A stretch of 8,410 nt of DNA from a virus (IMGVR_UViG_2684622543_000010), one strand, 5' to 3'. Positions 71-8,410 are shown, counted from the stretch's first letter. Notes: generated by a model not told the origin, from the sequence alone. Numbers and translations: made by a program.

Positions 71-875
<805 letters not shown>

Positions 876-971
876 ATATATATGTATTTTCTCTGTTAAG
901 CGTGAGCTACGTGAAAAATAATTTTTGGTGTGGGTATTAACTTTGCTTTATTCACGTAGAACACCGTTAAA

Positions 972-3152
972 TCATTCTTCCTCTGGATAGCTTGAACTTA
1001 AGAGCATATCCTGCGTGAACTGGTCATTAGCTGATTGATTGAAAGTAAAGAAAGATGGTTCATCTGGTCGAACGACAACTTGACCACCAAGTGAAACTTT
1101 CACTGGCTCCTGAATACGCTTACTCAAAGCACTAATTTCATCCCTCAGACCCTGAATATCTGCACTCGTTAATGCTGAATCTTGCTTAATGTTGTTTAAC
1201 TCTGGATGATTGAATCTTGCAATATTCATTGTGGCATTGTTAAACAATTCACCCATTGAACTAAAAATTCTACTCCATCCTTCGTTAATCATATTCGGTT
1301 TATTAGGGTCACCAGAATACACGGGATTAAAGTCACTACCCACACCTACCCCAGACGGATGCATATTAGCGTTTTTGACTACTTCCTGATTCATAAAATC
1401 CAGTGCTTTCTTCAATGCATATAAACCAAGAGTGACGCCTCTGATTTGTGGAATCATTGAAGCTAATGCTAACGCTGTTTCATAACCGTCATCAGCATAA
1501 CCAATTGCAAGAGCACTACCTACACCACCAGCTACACCTTTCAGTTTTCCACCACCTTTACCAGTAGCTACCTGACCAGCCACCTGATTAGCTCTTGTAC
1601 CTAACGTTGTGATTGCTCTTGTCAGGTTCATAACCCCTGTAGTAGCACTGAATAGCGTCTTTGCAGATAACGCTATAGCAAGACCTTTGACGAAGTTGAT
1701 AAAACCATCACCGACTTCATCAAGTAGTTTTCGTTTAGTGTCATCAAGGCTGTAATAGAACTTCTTAGTCTGTAAAATCCAGCCTTCAATGGTGTTATTG
1801 AATACGCGAATATCATCTACACCAGCTTTAAGCATGTCGATAAGTCCACCGATAGCATCACCAGCGATAGAAGAACTCATCCCCATTTCACTAAGCAGGT
1901 TACTCAGGCTGGATAAGAAGCCGTTTAGCTCATCCTGTGAACCTGAGAAGATTTTCACCATCGTATCATCCCAATTGTTTGCTAACTTACCTAAAGCTGT
2001 CTGAGTGCTCTTAGTGACTTCAGCCCAGCCACCCGCTTTATCAATCATCAAGCCCATCTGTTTAGCGACTTTAGGGAGAGTATCAGCGGAAAGTACCTTC
2101 CCGTTTTTCATGGCTGCATCAAGCTCTGTAGCAGTCATACCCAATGCTTCAGCGAATAGCTTAAATGCACCAGCCATACGGTCACCTAACTGCCCACGTA
2201 ATTCCTCAGCCTGAATCTTGCCCTTGCTCGCCATCTGCTCAAATGCTCTCAAAATGCCGTTTAGCTCATCGTTAGAAAGCCCCATTAAGCGACTCATAGC
2301 CGTTGCATTACCAAATAGCTCCTGTGTCTGTTCCTGTGACATAGAACCCTGAGCACCTGCTGCAAACTTAGCGTAGCTTGATAGCCCTTCAGAGATATTA
2401 AGACCTGTCTTGTCTGCTAAATTTCGAATAAATACCTCAGCTTCAGATGCTTTATCACCAAGTACAAACTTAGCGGCTCTCTGTGCGGAATCTCGTTTAA
2501 GACCTGCATTCATAATGGCCTTGTAAGCGTTAAGAGCACCCATCACAGAGTAAAATGCACCAGATAATTTAATCGCATTGCTTGCAAGATTATTAAATGC
2601 GTCGCTTGTATTGTTAATGCTGGCGGTCTTTGTCTGTGACCTGAGTTTATTCAACGTTTCACGAAGAGATTGATTTAATTTTGCAAGTTCAGCGTTAAAC
2701 TTTTCACTTCCAATATTACCAGCCTTACCGCTTAAGCTGTAATACTGTGCTTTAAACATTTTAGCCATCAGCGGATTAATATCACCAAGCTTAGACATAT
2801 TCACGCTATGCGCTGCTGTGATTGCTCTGTTTCCGCTAATTCGTGGTTGCCTTGATTGTTTTGGAGGATTAACAGTGTCATTAAATCTGGTGGCAAACTG
2901 AAATGCTTTTGTGCTTCTTGCTCTCTGCTCAATCTTGTCAAAGGTCTTATTAAACTTCCTTTCAAGCTGCCCTAAAGAACTTGTCAGATTGCTGTCAAGT
3001 TGCTTGGTATCGACCTTAAACGCTCTATTCAAATTGCGTTCAATTCTTTGTGCTGACTGCAAAGCTGCCTTTTCAACTCTTTGCAAGCCCTTAATAACGT
3101 TTTCACTGAAACTAAGTTCAACGATAAAACTATCAACTGTGAATTTGCTCAT
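972..3152 (-). CDS. Phage tail tape measure protein (726 aa)
   Basis: Long ORF; SD AGAGGTG upstream of ATG at 3152. N-terminal coiled-coil-like region, central segment typical of the tape-measure domain (RLMGLSNDELNGILRAFEQMASKGKIQAEELRGQLGDRMAGAFKLFAEALGMTATELDAAMKNGKV), Ala/Gly/Leu-rich helical composition and a glycine-rich stretch (GKGGGKLKGVAGGVGSALAIGY). Family assignment from recalled motif patterns, not a search. Confidence 0.8.
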   Translation of the reverse strand: MSKFTVDSFIVELSFSENVIKGLQRVEKAALQSAQRIERNLNRAFKVDTKQLDSNLTSSLGQLERKFNKTFDKIEQRARSTKAFQFATRFNDTVNPPKQSRQPRISGNRAITAAHSVNMSKLGDINPLMAKMFKAQYYSLSGKAGNIGSEKFNAELAKLNQSLRETLNKLRSQTKTASINNTSDAFNNLASNAIKLSGAFYSVMGALNAYKAIMNAGLKRDSAQRAAKFVLGDKASEAEVFIRNLADKTGLNISEGLSSYAKFAAGAQGSMSQEQTQELFGNATAMSRLMGLSNDELNGILRAFEQMASKGKIQAEELRGQLGDRMAGAFKLFAEALGMTATELDAAMKNGKVLSADTLPKVAKQMGLMIDKAGGWAEVTKSTQTALGKLANNWDDTMVKIFSGSQDELNGFLSSLSNLLSEMGMSSSIAGDAIGGLIDMLKAGVDDIRVFNNTIEGWILQTKKFYYSLDDTKRKLLDEVGDGFINFVKGLAIALSAKTLFSATTGVMNLTRAITTLGTRANQVAGQVATGKGGGKLKGVAGGVGSALAIGYADDGYETALALASMIPQIRGVTLGLYALKKALDFMNQEVVKNANMHPSGVGVGSDFNPVYSGDPNKPNMINEGWSRIFSSMGELFNNATMNIARFNHPELNNIKQDSALTSADIQGLRDEISALSKRIQEPVKVSLGGQVVVRPDEPSFFTFNQSANDQFTQDMLLSSSYPEEE

Positions 3153-3250
3153 TCATGTTTCACCTCTTTAAGTGTTCATATACGAAAAAGGGAAAGACTA
3201 CCGATATCACTCGATAATCTCTCCCGTAGATTTTCACCCAACCAATCTTG

Positions 3251-3457
3251 TTACCTAACCAGATAATAATTACCATCTTCACCAACAATCTGACAATCAC
3301 TTGGTAATTTATCAAGACACCACTTAGCTATTTTCCTGATTCTATTCTTTTGCTTAGAGGAGGTGAATGATTTGATTCGTTTTGGTTTGTTGGGTTGTTC
3401 TTTCAATCGTTCACTAATTGCTTTAATAAGCTCATAGCGTTCTGTTAAATCAATCAT
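3251..3457 (-). CDS. Hypothetical small basic protein (68 aa)
   Basis: ORF with ATG at 3457 preceded by AAGGTGGTGGTG (SD-like); lysine/arginine-rich; immediately upstream of the tape measure gene. No recognisable family. Confidence 0.5.
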   Translation of the reverse strand: MIDLTERYELIKAISERLKEQPNKPKRIKSFTSSKQKNRIRKIAKWCLDKLPSDCQIVGEDGNYYLVR

Positions 3458-3481
3458 TCACCACCACCTTTTAATTATTAA

Positions 3482-4192
3482 TTAAATAGCCTTTGCATAT
3501 TTGCTAGAAATCTTCGTAAGCTGCTCAATATCAGCCTGCATAGCAATCTTCTTAGCATCTTCATATTCTTTCACAAGCTCTTTCATAGCCTGAAGCTCTC
3601 TTGAGAGATACAACTTAACATTATCAAGTTGCTTGTTACGTGATGCCAAGATGTTCTGTCTAGCAATTTCAGCGAGTTCTTCATCGCTCTTATTAGTCAT
3701 GTAAATAAACTGACCAGCACCTCTTGATGCCTTAACCATCTTCACAATTCGATGTCCAGCAGGAAGACTACTAATCACGGCTGCGACGTTTTCTTGAAAA
3801 GTACCAAAACCATCATTATCTTCGTATTGGTAATAGACAAATGGTTTCTGTGACAATTCATCCTGAATCTCAAATTCTGACGGCTCAATAGCTGATTGCA
3901 TCAAGGTAACTTTGCTGTAAGCGTCATCTAATCTAAGGCGCTGTTCTTTCAGCAGTTGGTAATATTTCTTTTCAAGCTCAAGTAATGCTTCACTCTTGCA
4001 AATATCAGGCATCTCTTGAGGCTCAGGAGACACAAAGATGGTTGTTTTTGGTGACATCTTTAGCGATTGCTCAAGCTCAATACGCTTGTCATGCTCTTTA
4101 CGCTGAATAGTGATAGCTGGATGTTCAGTCTGTGGCGACCAGTCACTGAAGCTATCAATCACTTTGCCATTAATGTAAATATCATTTGTCAT
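3482..4192 (-). CDS. Hypothetical protein (236 aa), predicted coiled-coil-rich
   Basis: ATG at 4192 (MTNDIYINGK...) preceded by AGAGGA 6 nt upstream. The track's longer form (start 4240) lacks an RBS and is rejected. No recognisable family. Confidence 0.6.
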   Translation of the reverse strand: MTNDIYINGKVIDSFSDWSPQTEHPAITIQRKEHDKRIELEQSLKMSPKTTIFVSPEPQEMPDICKSEALLELEKKYYQLLKEQRLRLDDAYSKVTLMQSAIEPSEFEIQDELSQKPFVYYQYEDNDGFGTFQENVAAVISSLPAGHRIVKMVKASRGAGQFIYMTNKSDEELAEIARQNILASRNKQLDNVKLYLSRELQAMKELVKEYEDAKKIAMQADIEQLTKISSKYAKAI

Positions 4193-4590
4193 TGCTTTTC
4201 CTCTTCTAAGCGGAAGTGTTTCAGTTTTTAAAAAGCACACCTGACAGCCTATCTAAACTTAGAAGAGACTTAAAAGGCGGTTTGCCAAGTATGCTTTTTA
4301 AAAGCTGAATAGCCCTAGATAATTTCTTATAAAGGGCCATTCATAAGGTGAAGAAATTAAAACATCTAAAGGATTCAAAAAGGATTCAAACGAATGAACA
4401 AGAGTACTTTTCGAGATGACCTCTCAGACTAACCTGAAAGGTCATGTAGCGAAAAGCATTGCACCTTTCAGAATAACTATCATTGATGTAGAATGATTAA
4501 TAGTTTAATTCAGGAAGAGTTGCTCTTCCCTATTACCATCATCTCATGCTTAAGGTTATTTGTCAACAGCTTTTTAACAGATTGGTAACA

Positions 4591-4668
4591 TCAATTCTTA
4601 TTTACCGTATTACCTACCCAGCAACCAACAAATAACCCTAAAGTCATCCAGAGAATAACGAGTGTCAT
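4591..4668 (-). CDS. Candidate 25-aa hydrophobic micro-protein (MTLVILWMTLGLFVGCWVGNTVNKN)
   Basis: Not in the ORF track (too short). ATG at 4666-4668 overlaps the TAA stop of the upstream gene (TAATG), with GAGGTG 5-6 nt upstream; stop TGA at 4591-4593. Sequence is almost entirely hydrophobic (one predicted transmembrane helix). Could be spurious. Confidence 0.3.
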   Translation of the reverse strand: MTLVILWMTLGLFVGCWVGNTVNKN

Positions 4669-4973
4669 TACATCACCTCGCTGTAAGGGTTTAATTCATT
4701 CTGATAGGTCAAGAATACATTCAGCTTCAATAATTGCTCAGGGCTTAAATCAAGTCGATTGCACTCTTCAATGATAAAGCGCTTATTGTATGGGTCTGTT
4801 ACTTCCAGCTTGTGAACATAGTCACCAAGTTTAATTTCGTTGATTATATGCTTGTCAATATACGTTGACGCTTCAAAACAATGCATGAAATAGATATTAA
4901 AGCCCGACCTGTTCAGGTCAATCAACCAATTCATGGTTTCTTGGTCAACCATAATTTGCATTGGGTAATTCAT
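4668..4973 (-). CDS. Hypothetical protein (101 aa)
   Basis: ATG at 4973 with AGGAAGG 9 nt upstream; last gene of the small-gene operon. No recognisable family. Confidence 0.6.
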   Translation of the reverse strand: MNYPMQIMVDQETMNWLIDLNRSGFNIYFMHCFEASTYIDKHIINEIKLGDYVHKLEVTDPYNKRFIIEECNRLDLSPEQLLKLNVFLTYQNELNPYSEVM

Positions 4974-5119
4974 TTTTAAAATCCTTCCTGTATCGCATTC
5001 TAAGACGTTTTAACCCCTTTTTTAGACCACTTAAGGCGATTCCCTAAGTTACCCTGATTAGGGGCTTAAAAACGTTTCTGGTGCGTCTGGTAAAGCCTGA
5101 GAGATATGTTTTGCTGTTT

Positions 5120-5335
5120 TTAGCTCAAGTCTGAGACTAATAGCCCCATCTGGTGACCGTAGTCTTTTAACCAGCTTTGCTTAACCGGAGTCTTCAGAGA
5201 ATAGTTAGGGGCTGACAAGTGAAGATAGATATCATCTTTGCCGTGGATACTTCCCCATCCTTCGTATAACTCAAGCAAGTTTTCAAAATAACGAAATGCT
5301 TTATTAGTCTGAAGTTGTACTGTGATAGTTTTCAT
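5120..5335 (-). CDS. Hypothetical protein (71 aa, start MKTITVQ)
   Basis: ATG at 5335 overlaps the TGA stop of the upstream ORF (TGATG), indicating translational coupling; the track's extension to 5347 is rejected. No recognisable family. Confidence 0.5.
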   Translation of the reverse strand: MKTITVQLQTNKAFRYFENLLELYEGWGSIHGKDDIYLHLSAPNYSLKTPVKQSWLKDYGHQMGLLVSDLS

Positions 5336-5556
5336 CAAGCACCCCATTCAGAAATAAGCTTAATTCCCTGCTCAAGCTGTTCAGGGTCGTTATAGTCGAG
5401 TATTACCAGTGGCTTTAATTCGTGTTTAAGCTGGTGGATTTGAGAGGGTTTTAATCGTTTGTTTGCTTTGAGGGTCACATCTTCAAATTCAGCATCTGCT
5501 AAATTCTGTCTGATTAGGTGGCGGCCAAGTGTGGAATATTGGAACCTATAACACAT
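5335..5556 (-). CDS. Hypothetical protein (73 aa)
   Basis: ATG at 5556 overlaps the TAA stop of the upstream ORF (TAATG), with GGAGG just upstream. No recognisable family. Confidence 0.55.
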   Translation of the reverse strand: MCYRFQYSTLGRHLIRQNLADAEFEDVTLKANKRLKPSQIHQLKHELKPLVILDYNDPEQLEQGIKLISEWGA

Positions 5557-5846
5557 TAAACCTCCAATCTATCCGCCAGTTGATGGACCTTAGCGCTTAA
5601 CACCTGAATCATTGAGCAACCTGCTACTGCGGACTGTGCTTTGAGTAGTTCCAGTTGGCCCGTTGTGATTCTGATGGCCTTAGAACCCTCTGCGACGCCC
5701 TTAACGTTATCGAAAGGGCTAAGGTTTACCGACTCTTTTAAAATCTCCCCAACAAGCGCTGTGTGCTTCATATCGGGATATTTGGCTTTGATTGCTGCCA
5801 GTCGTTCAAATGCCTCTGGCAAAAGGCGCGTAACTGTGTGAGTCAT
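5556..5846 (-). CDS. Candidate ribbon-helix-helix (CopG/Arc-like) DNA-binding protein, 96 aa; first gene of the small-gene operon
   Basis: ATG at 5846 (MTHTVTRLLPEAFERLAAIKAKY...) with GGAG 9 nt upstream; the track start at 5876 lacks an RBS. N-terminus has a beta-strand-then-helix pattern (TVTRLLPEAFERLAAI) typical of RHH regulators; a second similar segment follows (AIRITTGQLELLKAQ). Pattern-based inference only. Confidence 0.5.
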   Translation of the reverse strand: MTHTVTRLLPEAFERLAAIKAKYPDMKHTALVGEILKESVNLSPFDNVKGVAEGSKAIRITTGQLELLKAQSAVAGCSMIQVLSAKVHQLADRLEV

Positions 5847-5876
5847 TGTAAAAATCTCCTTAAATCTCTTACTCAT

Positions 5877-5983
5877 ACTACAATCTTAACATCTATTTAA
5901 CATATTGTCAGTACCTCATTTACATGATACTATGGTTGTAGGGGCTGATACAGGTGCTGTTTCCTTTCACAAAAGGAAAATTA
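5877..5983. promoter_or_regulatory. Divergent promoter region between the minus-strand small-gene operon and the plus-strand small ORF
   Basis: Plus strand: -35 TTGTCA (5905-5910), 17-bp spacer, extended -10 TGaTACTAT (5925-5933). Minus strand: possible -35 CTGACA (5912-5907), 18-bp spacer, -10 TAAGAT (5888-5883). Hexamers read by eye; no experimental support. Confidence 0.35.
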
Positions 5984-6160
5984 ATGCATGATTTTTTCAC
6001 AGCAATTATTGAATCTCATCGTTTTAGCTCGTTGGGCTTTGCGGTATTTATTGTGCTATTGGTGTTTTGCGTTATGAATCGAGTCATTACAAAAAAGACA
6101 AAGCTTACAATTCGACTTAAACTTCTTCGTGTTGAGATAGAGATTTCAGTAAATAAATAG
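5984..6160 (+). CDS. Small predicted single-pass membrane protein (58 aa from ATG; 68 aa if the in-frame GTG at 5954 is used)
   Basis: The only plausible plus-strand gene; sits in an otherwise uncovered gap. AAGGA 7 nt upstream of ATG 5984; promoter-like element at 5905-5933. Hydrophobic core (LGFAVFIVLLVFCVM) followed by a basic amphipathic tail (TKKTKLTIRLKLLRVEIEI). Ends 9 bp from the convergent minus-strand ORF. Confidence 0.4.
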   Translation: MHDFFTAIIESHRFSSLGFAVFIVLLVFCVMNRVITKKTKLTIRLKLLRVEIEISVNK

Positions 6161-6169
6161 CTGGTGGCC

Positions 6170-6466
6170 TTACCGGCACTTTCCCTTGATAATATTGGTG
6201 GCCCTCAGATTACCGGGGTCACCGTCTTTTAATCGTAGCTGGTGGACTGAATCCCATAAATCGTAATGATACAGCACCGCAAACTTCAAAGCGTCAATCT
6301 TTAAATCTGTCACATCATCGACGAAATAATAATCCCTCCCTTCTTTCTTCGGTCGAATCCGGTAAACTTCCCCGTGAGTATCTTTCATCAAGTAACCTTC
6401 ACGAGAAATGCTGTAACGTCTGAGTAAATAGTCACGGTATTTTCTCTCGCCATTATAAGTTTTCAT
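6170..6466 (-). CDS. Hypothetical protein (98 aa)
   Basis: ATG at 6466 overlaps the TAA stop of the upstream replication-initiator-like gene (TAATG), with GGAGG 9 nt upstream. No recognisable family. Confidence 0.6.
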   Translation of the reverse strand: MKTYNGERKYRDYLLRRYSISREGYLMKDTHGEVYRIRPKKEGRDYYFVDDVTDLKIDALKFAVLYHYDLWDSVHQLRLKDGDPGNLRATNIIKGKCR

Positions 6467-7221
6467 TAAAACATTCCTCCACCATAAACACGTCTGACTT
6501 TAACTTTTTCTTTCTTTGGCTCGGTGTGAGTTTTCTTTTTTGGTGTAAAAGTAAAATCATCGTCACTATCATCAAAGTCATCGAGGTCACTAACCTTGTT
6601 CTTTAGCTTCGCATTTCTGAATCTTTCTTTAATTTCTGCTTTACGCTGTTCACGTTTNNNNNNNNNNNNNNNNNNNNNNNNNNNNNNNNNNNNNNNNNNN
6701 NNNNNNNNNNNNNNNNNNNNNNNNNNNNNNNNNNNNNNNNNNNNNNNNNNNNNNNNNNNNNNNNNNNNNNNNNNNNNNNNNNNNNNNNNNNNNNNNNNNN
6801 NNNNNNNNNNNNNNNNNNNNNNNNNNNNNNNNNNNNNNNNNNNNNNNNNNNNNNNNNNNNNNNNNNNNNNNNNNNNNNNNNNNNNNNNNNNNNNNNNNNN
6901 NNNNNNNNNNNNNNNNNNNNGCTCTGTTAAAACCTCCGGTACTTCATCAAGTGAATAAACTTTAATAACACACTGATTGCTTGCAACGTTAGTTTTCTTG
7001 ATTAAACCATGTGCCTCAAGTTGTTTCATACATGCAATCACGGATGTTCTTGTGATTCCAGCATACTGACCAAGATGAGCATATGAAGGGGTATAATATT
7101 GCCCCTTATCGTGATAAAACTTTTGTTCATTCAACATGACAGTGTAAATAATACGGTCGGCAGCTTTAACGCCATTAGTCATCTGATAAATACGGTCATC
7201 AAACATGTGGAATTTTTCCAT
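6466..7221 (-). CDS. Replication-initiator / replisome-organizer-like winged-HTH protein (about 251 aa as given), interrupted by an N-run
   Basis: ATG at 7221 (MEKFHMFDDRIY...) with AAGGAA 7 nt upstream; the track's upstream extension is rejected. N-terminal ~100 aa has the helix-turn-helix pattern of phage O-type / DnaD-type initiators (RIIYTVMLNEQ...YYTPSYAHLGQYAGITRTSVIACMKQLEAHGLIKK). C-terminus is highly charged (KKK..., DLDDFDDSDDDF). The middle of the protein is unknown because of the N-run. Confidence 0.55.
   Translation of the reverse strand: MEKFHMFDDRIYQMTNGVKAADRIIYTVMLNEQKFYHDKGQYYTPSYAHLGQYAGITRTSVIACMKQLEAHGLIKKTNVASNQCVIKVYSLDEVPEVLTEXXXXXXXXXXXXXXXXXXXXXXXXXXXXXXXXXXXXXXXXXXXXXXXXXXXXXXXXXXXXXXXXXXXXXXXXXXXXXXXXXXXXXXXXKREQRKAEIKERFRNAKLKNKVSDLDDFDDSDDDFTFTPKKKTHTEPKKEKVKVRRVYGGGMF
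6658..6920. other. Run of 263 N (assembly gap or masked sequence) inside the replication-initiator-like CDS
   Basis: Seen directly. Flanking coding segments are in the same reading frame across the run as given, so the N-run may replace real sequence of about this length; its content cannot be assessed. Confidence 0.95.
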
Positions 7222-7603
7222 TATATTTTCCTTTTTAAAAATAAAACAAAGAAAGGGCTGACCACGTATAGTGACCAACCCCAGAGGGAGTGAATTAATT
7301 AGAAGATGGACTGATAAAGGAACTCAGAAGCCTGAGCGATTACGCGAGTATTAACAGCAAAAGGAAAAGCCTTGATTGAATAAGAGGCCGTGAAAATCTG
7401 TCAATACCCTGACGCCTCCCAACGTTGTAACCTCTTAATGTTCTGAGTTCTTTTATCACCCCATATAAAAACTATAACAGATGTGATTATAAATTGCAAC
7501 AATTATTTCACAGAATAATTACTGATTGGTCATTTATTGTTCACAGGGATACTTCTTAATATCTGAATCACCTATCTTGTAAATGACCATATTTATGAGA
7601 ATT

Positions 7604-8266
7604 TTAGCTCAACCTTTGAGCAATCCTGTATGACGTGCTCAGAGGCATTCTGAGAGCATCTGCAATGCACTTAATGGGTTTTCCTTGCCTGTATAGTTTT
7701 ATGAAGCTGTCGAGCGTCTCAGGTGGGTAAATGGTGGGTCTTCCTCTCAAGCCTCCTCTGTTAATGATGGTTAACGGTAATAGCGTGTCACCACAGCAAA
7801 CCGTCTGTGTAATTTCGTGCTTACGTGGTTCTTTTTTAAAAACAACGACTGCACTAGGAAACGGTGAACGAATAGTAAGCCCGTTATGGCCTGCTGGTGG
7901 AAGGTATTTAACTGCACGATGAAGAATACGGATTTCATGACAGTGGTTATTGCTGTAAATGTGCCTAAGCCAGTAGCTGGTGTTGGCTCTATGCGGTATC
8001 AGGAAAGCTACTAAATCCGCTTCAGACGCTTTTAAGAGGAACGACGGAATATCGCTGTACGGCAGGTTACAGAAGACCTTTTCACTAACCCATGATTGAC
8101 GGCTTATATCATTGGTGAATCGTGGTAACAGCGTGTCATGCTCAGTTGCAGCACCATCTAGCGTAAAACCAAATTCACGGTGTAAGTTCTTAAATAACAA
8201 CAATGGAGTTCTCCAGTAATCAGAACCCCCATGATGTTTCCCGATTAAAATATGCTCAATTGACAT
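7604..8266 (-). CDS. Phage Dam-family (T1/HP1-type) N6-adenine DNA methyltransferase homolog with a C-terminal resolvase-type helix-turn-helix extension (220 aa)
   Basis: Family hallmarks in order: DYWRTP, FTLDGAAT, a catalytic-motif position reading NLPYS (canonical is NPPYS), and SPFPSAVVVF. The C-terminal ~60 aa (RGGLRGRPTIYPPETLDSFIKLYRQGKPIKCIADALRMPLSTSYRIAQRLS) resembles the GRP-linker plus HTH of serine recombinases (Hin/resolvase type). No SD upstream of ATG 8266 (AT-rich leader). Motifs recalled from memory, not searched. Confidence 0.8.
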   Translation of the reverse strand: MSIEHILIGKHHGGSDYWRTPLLLFKNLHREFGFTLDGAATEHDTLLPRFTNDISRQSWVSEKVFCNLPYSDIPSFLLKASEADLVAFLIPHRANTSYWLRHIYSNNHCHEIRILHRAVKYLPPAGHNGLTIRSPFPSAVVVFKKEPRKHEITQTVCCGDTLLPLTIINRGGLRGRPTIYPPETLDSFIKLYRQGKPIKCIADALRMPLSTSYRIAQRLS

Positions 8267-8296
8267 AAGAAATAAAAAATTTTATTGCAATCACTC

Positions 8297-8323
8297 TTGA
8301 CAAGGTTTACTCTCTTTTAAGAT
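8297..8323 (+). promoter_or_regulatory. Candidate sigma70-type promoter reading rightward out of the window, overlapping the left arm of the inverted repeat
   Basis: Perfect -35 TTGACA (8297-8302), 15-bp spacer, -10 TAAGAT (8318-8323). The spacer is short, so this is weak evidence. Confidence 0.2.
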
Positions 8324-8389
8324 AAGAGATACTTAACAGGCTTTCTAAACGGATATCCTTTCTGGAATATCTATCTCTTATCTTAAAAG
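8314..8389. repeat. 18-bp perfect inverted repeat (CTTTTAAGATAAGAGATA / TATCTCTTATCTTAAAAG) with a 40-bp spacer containing the palindrome GGATATCC
   Basis: Seen directly: arms at 8314-8331 and 8372-8389 are exact reverse complements; spacer 8332-8371 contains GGATATCC (8351-8358) flanked by two CTTTCT copies. Lies 48-123 bp upstream of the methylase-HTH start codon. Confidence 0.85.
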
Positions 8390-8410
8390 TCTTTACAGAT
8401 ACTTTAAAGA

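Follow-up and report, generated by a model that had tools for sequence, protein, structure and literature searches.

The DNA catalogued as IMGVR_UViG_2684622543_000010, a stretch of 8,410 nucleotides (nt) that we refer to as the window throughout, contains an operon of five small genes, all on the minus strand. These are designated g1, g2, g3 and g4, followed by a mini open reading frame (mini-ORF) that encodes 25 amino acids (aa). Two of the products, g1 and g4, are predicted to be single-chain double ribbon-helix-helix (RHH) proteins, and a long hairpin separates the middle genes from g4. Related copies of the locus (L001 to L020) were gathered from E. coli chromosomes, public assemblies and IMG/VR. 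In gene order, and with the isoelectric point (pI) of the two predicted RHH proteins, the operon comprises:

5556 to 5846, minus strand: g1, 96 aa, pI 8.9 (basic), predicted single-chain double RHH protein
5335 to 5556, minus strand: g2, 73 aa
5120 to 5335, minus strand: g3, 71 aa
4974 to 5119, minus strand: cassette-specific 146-nt spacer between g3 and g4, with a long imperfect hairpin
4668 to 4973, minus strand: g4, 101 aa, pI 4.7 (acidic), predicted single-chain double RHH protein
4591 to 4668, minus strand: mini-ORF, 25 aa, hydrophobic (MTLVILWMTLGLFVGCWVGNTVNKN)

Coupling, selection and the exchangeable slot

The initial annotation of this region described four chained open reading frames of 96, 73, 71 and 101 aa and a 146-bp gap with an imperfect inverted repeat. 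All of these are present as described, and the gap measures exactly 146 nt. Its four-gene operon was right about the coupling, which is kept across 20 loci, and missed the mini-ORF as a fifth gene. Stop and start codons have one base in common at the g1/g2 joint (TAATG at 5556) and at the g2/g3 joint (TGATG at 5335), and the mini-ORF starts on the stop codon of g4 (TAATG). Overlaps of 1 or 4 nt between g1 and the gene behind it, between g2 and g3, and between g4 and the mini-ORF are retained in the 20 related loci whatever cargo is present, and the mini-ORF still overlaps the preceding stop codon where another gene replaces its upstream neighbour. The Shine-Dalgarno sequences are AAGGAG for g1 (9 nt upstream of the start), GGAGG for g2 (4 nt upstream), GGGGTG for g3, AGGAAGGA for g4, located at the end of the spacer, and GAGG for the mini-ORF. 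Alternative starts at upstream ATG codons, which would give a g1 of 106 aa and a g3 of 75 aa, were rejected, as the homologues measure 96-97 and 71 aa, respectively. Some islands contain an extra gene of 74-75 aa between g4 and the mini-ORF (L005:8683-8907, L006:4621-4848), the similarity of which to the g4b family is weak (E about 0.001 from a very small database) and hints at duplication and divergence within the g4 family.

All four larger genes are protein-coding and under purifying selection in their own frame only. This follows from the ratio of non-synonymous to synonymous change (pN/pS, Nei-Gojobori count), which was computed among related loci for the coding frame and the two off-frames. 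It is low in-frame, with ranges of 0.06-0.43 for g1, 0.07-0.33 for g2, 0.23-0.71 for g3 and 0.17-0.23 for g4, and mostly about 0.4-3 in the off-frames. The mini-ORF product shows 60-92% aa identity across 9-10 related loci, with many synonymous changes. In both inspected RefSeq loci that contain this cassette (L001 and L004) g2 is without annotation; the gene is called in other assemblies. When g1 was searched against a contig collection with one genome per species, one locus only was returned.

The genes between g1 and g4 occupy a slot whose content varies, which bears out, for the middle of the block, the variable accessory island that the initial annotation raised as a point to check. The unit consisting of g2, g3 and the spacer is present in 20 of 5,426 complete E. 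coli genomes at 97.5-99.8% identity. By comparison, g4 has a wider distribution: a query made of g4 and the spacer matched in some part in 270 genomes, and most of the larger matches end at the start of g4. In L004, g1 is 69% identical to the g1 of the window, yet g2 and g3 are 99-100% identical, and the cassette has therefore moved between islands. Alternative contents of the slot include g3 alone, a 128/141-aa protein with a C-terminal helix-turn-helix (HTH) domain (c128/c141), an HNH_3 protein together with g2 and g3, and a g3-like gene together with an HNH_3 protein. In hhalign, the N-terminal domain of the 128/141-aa cargo proteins could be aligned with the g2 family (P = 9e-5, 68 columns), and the two are likely homologous. 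Diverged g2/g3 pairs (53% and 49% identity) remain adjacent. Homologous recombination in the conserved g1 and g4 flanks suffices to account for the exchange of the cassette.

Within the spacer, an inverted repeat spans 5003-5079, with outer arms at 5003-5018 and 5060-5079 and inner arms at 5030-5036 and 5042-5048. Folded as RNA, the spacer gives a single long hairpin of -33.4 kcal/mol (z = -2.0), with 5 of 200 shuffles doing as well. The hairpin found between cargo and g4 differs by cargo type and is always long and imperfect (-31 to -48 kcal/mol). An intrinsic terminator was rejected, there being no T-tract on either strand, and an integron attC site was rejected by inspection, with neither RYYYAAC / GTTRRRY core sites nor IntI present. 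An Rfam scan returned chance-level matches only.

Predicted RHH proteins and operator-like repeats

The initial annotation recognized an RHH-like pattern in the first gene and found none of the downstream proteins identifiable. The first point agrees with the structure prediction, which furthermore places two RHH units in the single g1 chain. The second stands for g2 and g3, which match no recognizable family, and falls for g4, the structure of which is predicted to be a second double RHH protein. The AlphaFold2 (AF2) model of g4, built from a 103-sequence alignment, has a mean confidence (pLDDT) of 81.9 and a predicted template-modelling score (pTM) of 0.77, and shows the secondary structure E-H-H..E-H-H. 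The F relaxosome provides its top PDB matches, the three TraY chains (probability 0.97-0.99, TM about 0.5-0.57), DndE comes next, and its best viral structural matches are annotated as RHH/CopG (probability 0.99-1.0). On this basis g4 is confidently predicted to be a single-chain double RHH protein. For g1, the model shows E-H-H-linker-E-H-H and matches TraY, DndE and a permuted single-chain Arc, and the same fold is predicted with less certainty.

In sequence comparisons, the Pfam family Omega_Repress was matched below threshold by 5 of 26 g1 homologues (E 0.034) and DndE by the g1b allele (E 0.02), both in agreement with the predicted fold, and no match to the TraY family of Pfam was found for g1 or g4. 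Alleles of g1 that are 31% identical still keep the beta-strand residues HT(V/L)TR and IRIT, and g1 has no extra toxin-binding tail beyond the double RHH. At 90% identity, the diverse g4 family splits into 3,500 clusters. It has two deep alleles and varies mainly in its first RHH unit and its C-terminal tail. The acidic character of g4 extends to the g4b allele (pI 4.2). Searches of g1-g4 and their diverged homologues against Pfam, PHROGs, NCBIfam and PADLOC returned no family at or near threshold, and single-sequence and profile searches against PDB sequences gave no match. In none of these collections was a toxin, defence or anti-defence family found, and the host-takeover, anti-defence and toxin-antitoxin roles raised in the initial annotation find no support. 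Likewise, homology to ordinary structural or replication functions was looked for and none was found, and the reading frames and their coupling are conserved in relatives.

Short direct repeats of the form TGTTR lie on the promoter of the operon and on the next promoter downstream:

5883 to 5911, minus strand: operon promoter, -35 CTGACA, 17-nt spacer with TG, -10 TAAGAT (consensus scan)
5887 to 5913, minus strand: operator-like train O1, made up of two TGTTA units (5898-5902, 5887-5891) and a degenerate third one, TACTG, over the -35
5905 to 5933, plus strand: divergent promoter, TTGTCA, 17 nt, TACTAT
4564 to 4590, minus strand: operator-like train O2, with three TGTTR units at 11-bp intervals
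4538 to 4566, minus strand: next promoter downstream, TTGACA, 17 nt, GATGAT with TG

The operon promoter is conserved in nine loci and its -35 reads TTGACA in other loci. It stands back-to-back with the divergent promoter, with -35 bases in common. The O1 units follow one another at 11-bp intervals over the -35, the spacer and the -10, and the third unit reads TGTTG in other loci; in coding orientation, the g1 promoter of related loci is TGTTGACAATATGTTAAATAGATGTTAAGAT, with three TGTTR units exactly 11 bp apart. O2 (TGTTACCAATCTGTTAAAAAGCTGTTGACA) begins 1 nt past the stop codon of the mini-ORF and ends inside the -35 of the next promoter, which drives a structured leader or small RNA (sRNA) and then the genes for a 236-aa protein, a 68-aa protein, a tape-measure protein (TMP) and Dit. 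The arrangement TGTTR-N6-TGTTR has three occurrences in the window where 0.15 would be expected, a count that none of 200 shuffles attains, and across the 20 loci it is almost confined to the g1 promoter and the next downstream promoter. Islands with a g1 allele of ~31% identity keep the TGTTR motif yet are without the HTH_36 Rep-like protein encoded in the neighbourhood. We infer that g1 is a more likely binder of TGTTR than the Rep-like protein, because the HTH_36-less islands keep both the strand residues of g1 and the motif.

Directly behind the O2-bearing promoter lies a conserved structured RNA or leader (window 4386-4539, minus strand, extending to about 4241), consisting of three helices with compensatory changes at 9 of 27 pairs across 11 loci. 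Clean intrinsic terminators separate it from the 236-aa protein and TMP genes in most related loci. It could be an sRNA or an attenuated leader and may be compared with SviR of the PLE satellites of V. cholerae.

The island setting

In contrast to the phage setting assumed in the initial annotation, the window is part of an ~11-kb satellite-like integrative chromosomal island. Window positions 3200-8410 are about 90% identical to stretches in 501 of the 5,426 complete E. coli genomes, where the insertion site of the island is yecE, the wrbA-yccJ interval or the tonB-yciI interval (e.g. L001:14607-25700 and L004:2220-13557). In order, the island carries a large serine recombinase, a Dit-like tail protein, TMP, a 68-72-aa protein and the ~236-aa protein. 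These are followed by a 350-510-nt non-coding stretch, the operon from g1 to the mini-ORF and a divergent gene for a small membrane protein. Next come a 96-98-aa protein, the HTH_36 Rep-like protein and a Dam methylase that has an HTH tail; in some cases a small resolvase is also present. The placement of the operon behind a divergent promoter region between replication and tail modules, as initially described, is borne out by this order, with the HTH_36 protein and Dam on one side and TMP and Dit on the other. The large serine recombinase, which lies outside the window, measures 506-547 aa in related loci and has the domains Resolvase, Recombinase and Zn_ribbon_recom; no recognized excision factor was found in the island. 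Operon architecture, coupling, promoters and operator-like repeats are conserved across Escherichia and Citrobacter.

The tail genes of the island resemble those of a group of virulent phages. TMP and Dit_like domains were matched with E values of 1.7e-15 and 2.5e-20, respectively, and matches to phage records are limited to window positions 356-3173, which correspond to the Felixounavirus tape-measure gene and the adjacent gp119-like gene. The island TMP and gp119 genes are 88-93% identical to those of Felixounavirus at the nucleotide level in pieces (garuso_118/119). No match was obtained for the operon region 4300-6200 against phages (blastn), for g2, g3 and g4 together against phage and plasmid collections (tblastn), or for the window against plasmids. 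Gene content and these identities suggest a PLE-like satellite of virulent Felix O1-type phages. We searched the literature for an earlier account of such an E. coli island or satellite without success, which is not proof of novelty.

A further conserved gene of the window lies beside the operon:

5984 to 6160, plus strand: divergent gene for a conserved single-pass membrane protein, 58-62 aa, invariant motif ESHRF, good Shine-Dalgarno sequence

A hairpin resembling a terminator lies at 6160-6177. The Dit-like gene of the window (122-815, minus strand) is split by a frameshift near 667-669, such that residues 1-49 and 75-251 of an intact Dit homologue match in different frames; this island copy may thus have a defective Dit-like gene. 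The HTH_36 Rep-like gene (6466-7278) contains 263 masked positions (N, 6658-6920) and is not fully readable. In window 7604-8266 (minus strand), a Dam-type N6-adenine methyltransferase (Pfam Dam, E 1.4e-14; PADLOC orphan methyltransferase match) is fused to a resolvase-type HTH at its C-terminus (Pfam HTH_7, E 1.9e-4). Insertion sequence (IS) elements are present in some related islands. In a second island type (L008:6669-7505, L015:5504-6338, L020:3453-4290), the HTH_36 protein is absent and its replacement, an unrelated 185-aa protein, heads the operon and is followed by the ~31%-identical g1 allele; in its upstream region, two inverted TGTTR pairs are separated by about 80 bp.

Interpretation and comparison with known systems

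We propose that these genes form the control-and-accessory operon of a small phage-satellite-like island, in which g1 regulates its own promoter and governs the next one, and we put the probability of this explanation at roughly one half. In the proposed mechanism, g1, as a basic, TraY-like double RHH protein, would bind TGTTR trains with units one helical turn (11 bp) apart. On O1, where it would cover the -35, spacer and -10 of the operon promoter as well as the divergent -35, binding would result in autorepression. On O2, upstream of and over the -35, it would set the expression of the leader or sRNA and of the tail-gene side (236-aa protein, TMP and Dit). The slot directly behind g1 accepts exchangeable cargo, in this case g2 and g3. 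The cargo slot and g4 would supply island-specific functions, and translational coupling would fix the stoichiometry. The acidic g4 would more likely bind protein or antagonize g1 than bind DNA, and the mini-ORF probably encodes a membrane peptide. At a guess, the spacer hairpin might be an RNA processing or stability element that sets the expression of g4 and the mini-ORF apart.

Several points weigh against this proposal. The g1 model has low confidence (pLDDT 58). Comparisons by hhalign of g1 with g4, and of each half with the other halves, found neither homology nor internal repeats, and because hhalign gave no signal the tandem RHH assignment derives from predicted structure. There is no above-threshold sequence match to an RHH family model for g1, and no such match at any level for g4. 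For g2 and g3, no family was found in Pfam, PHROGs, NCBIfam, PADLOC or PDB sequences. The TGTTGACA unit is equally a good extended -35, and the first O1 unit and the -35 (CTGACA) of the window itself are degenerate. Direct repeats with 11-bp phasing are equally typical of winged-helix regulators and iterons, and another island or host protein could bind the TGTTR trains. Satellite behaviour, finally, is suggested only by gene content and Felixounavirus identity.

Among the alternatives, it is possible, though unlikely, that g1 and/or g4 are architectural accessory factors in DNA processing and not transcription regulators, acting for instance as directionality factor of the serine recombinase or as marker of a replication origin or packaging site. 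Their best structural matches, TraY (a DNA-bending relaxosome accessory) and DndE, would fit such a role, as would the large serine recombinase without recognized excision factor and the conserved structured non-coding region that adjoins O2. However, the repeats lie exactly on two sigma-70-like promoters and not at the island ends, and architectural and regulatory roles are not mutually exclusive. A comparably doubtful alternative is that g2, g3 and/or g4 are effectors of helper-phage interference or defence, like the PLE protein Rta, and that g1 merely controls them. The slot is variable, the cassette is at least 97.5% identical across islands whose remaining sequence shares about 90% identity or less, suggesting recent exchange, and the diversity of the g4 family would likewise suit an effector. 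The island furthermore has its own Felixounavirus-related TMP and Dit, as PLEs carry TMP/TAC/BhuB alongside Rta (PMC12987554). Yet no similarity to any defence or anti-defence model was detected, and several of the alternative cargos resemble DNA binders (HTH, HNH_3), which points more to regulation.

Type II toxin-antitoxin systems typically have an RHH autoregulator that heads tightly coupled small genes, an arrangement also seen here. A toxin-antitoxin or abortive-infection module, with g1 or g4 as antitoxin and g2, g3 or the 25-aa peptide as toxin, is nevertheless improbable. While the hydrophobic peptide is similar in size to small membrane toxins, no toxin family was found in Pfam, NCBIfam or PADLOC, g1 lacks the additional tail for toxin binding, and the operon has five genes. 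Moreover, the gene behind g1 is freely exchanged (g2, g3, c128/c141, HNH_3), which is unexpected for a co-evolving pair. The frameshifted Dit-like gene of the window and the IS insertions in some related islands could indicate that the reading frames are what is left of a defective prophage, in decay and without function at present, an explanation that we strongly disfavour given the purifying selection on all four reading frames and the conservation of architecture, coupling, promoters and operators across two genera.

Our preferred explanation, a regulatory operon centred on g1, can be extended to a more speculative and, in our view, rather unlikely scenario. The operon would then be the control and interference centre of an undescribed E. 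coli/Citrobacter satellite family that parasitizes virulent Felix O1-like myoviruses much as PLEs do ICP1, with g1 and g4 as a repressor/anti-repressor switch on the TGTTR trains, and with the g2/g3 cassette and the g4 variants as helper-specific sensors or Rta-like inhibitors of tail assembly or gene expression. To our knowledge, the V. cholerae PLEs are the only satellites exploiting virulent phages whose circuits have been worked out in detail. The operon offers a compact E. coli candidate circuit, in which two natural single-chain RHH proteins are combined with trains of phased operators on two promoters and with a slot for exchangeable small genes, and relatives of the island occur in roughly one in ten complete E. 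coli genomes. If the scenario is true, a resident element that senses or sabotages Felix O1-like phages would matter in practice, because these phages are used for typing, biocontrol and therapy of Salmonella and E. coli. RHH regulators, phased operators and satellite-like islands are all known in kind; the arrangement in which they occur here we did not find described.

The exchangeable slot recalls integron cassettes, the attC core sites and IntI tyrosine recombinase of which were not found here. The likeness to type II toxin-antitoxin systems lies in the RHH protein at the head of overlapping small genes, whereas the absence of a recognizable toxin, the exchangeable partners, the five genes and the second RHH protein that closes the operon set it apart. 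Among the PADLOC defence-protein models, g1-g4 had no match and only the neighbouring Dam was matched, as an orphan methyltransferase. The RHH repressors P22 Arc/Mnt, CopG and omega are small and autoregulate via repeated short operators that overlap promoters, as proposed for g1. They are homodimers of chains of about 45-70 aa, in contrast to the natural single-chain tandems predicted for g1 and g4, a form that fits asymmetric direct-repeat sites.

The closest structural parallel is TraY of the F plasmid, the best structural match of both g1 and g4. With about 100-130 aa, TraY imitates an RHH dimer within a single chain by means of two beta-alpha-alpha units, and the same build is predicted for g1 and g4, which are of similar size. 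F TraY is a monomer that holds the whole RHH-dimer fold and binds DNA as a train of three units (PMC12117103), which parallels the three 11-bp-phased TGTTR units described above. The operon proteins differ in lacking sequence similarity to TraY and any relaxase, oriT or tra context, their neighbours being Rep-like, Dam, TMP and Dit; in addition, the repeats lie on promoters and g4 is acidic.

At the level of the whole island, the nearest analogues are the PLE satellites, which parasitize the virulent myovirus ICP1 in V. cholerae. Host and helper differ, the island measures about 11 kb, and the comparison is one of gene content. PLEs encode their own TMP, chaperone and hub, which give rise to chimeric tails, and Rta of PLE11, an 80-aa orphan protein, blocks the tape-measure-dependent tail assembly of the helper phage (PMC12987554). 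Both kinds of element are small and have a large serine recombinase, their own TMP, a baseplate/hub-type protein and small orphan genes. The combination of a serine recombinase integrase with a replication module, which characterizes PLEs, is found in the related loci in the form of the 506-547-aa recombinase and the HTH_36 Rep-like protein. Tail proteins related to those of a virulent helper, a further PLE characteristic, are encoded here by genes with up to 88-93% nucleotide identity to Felixounavirus in parts.

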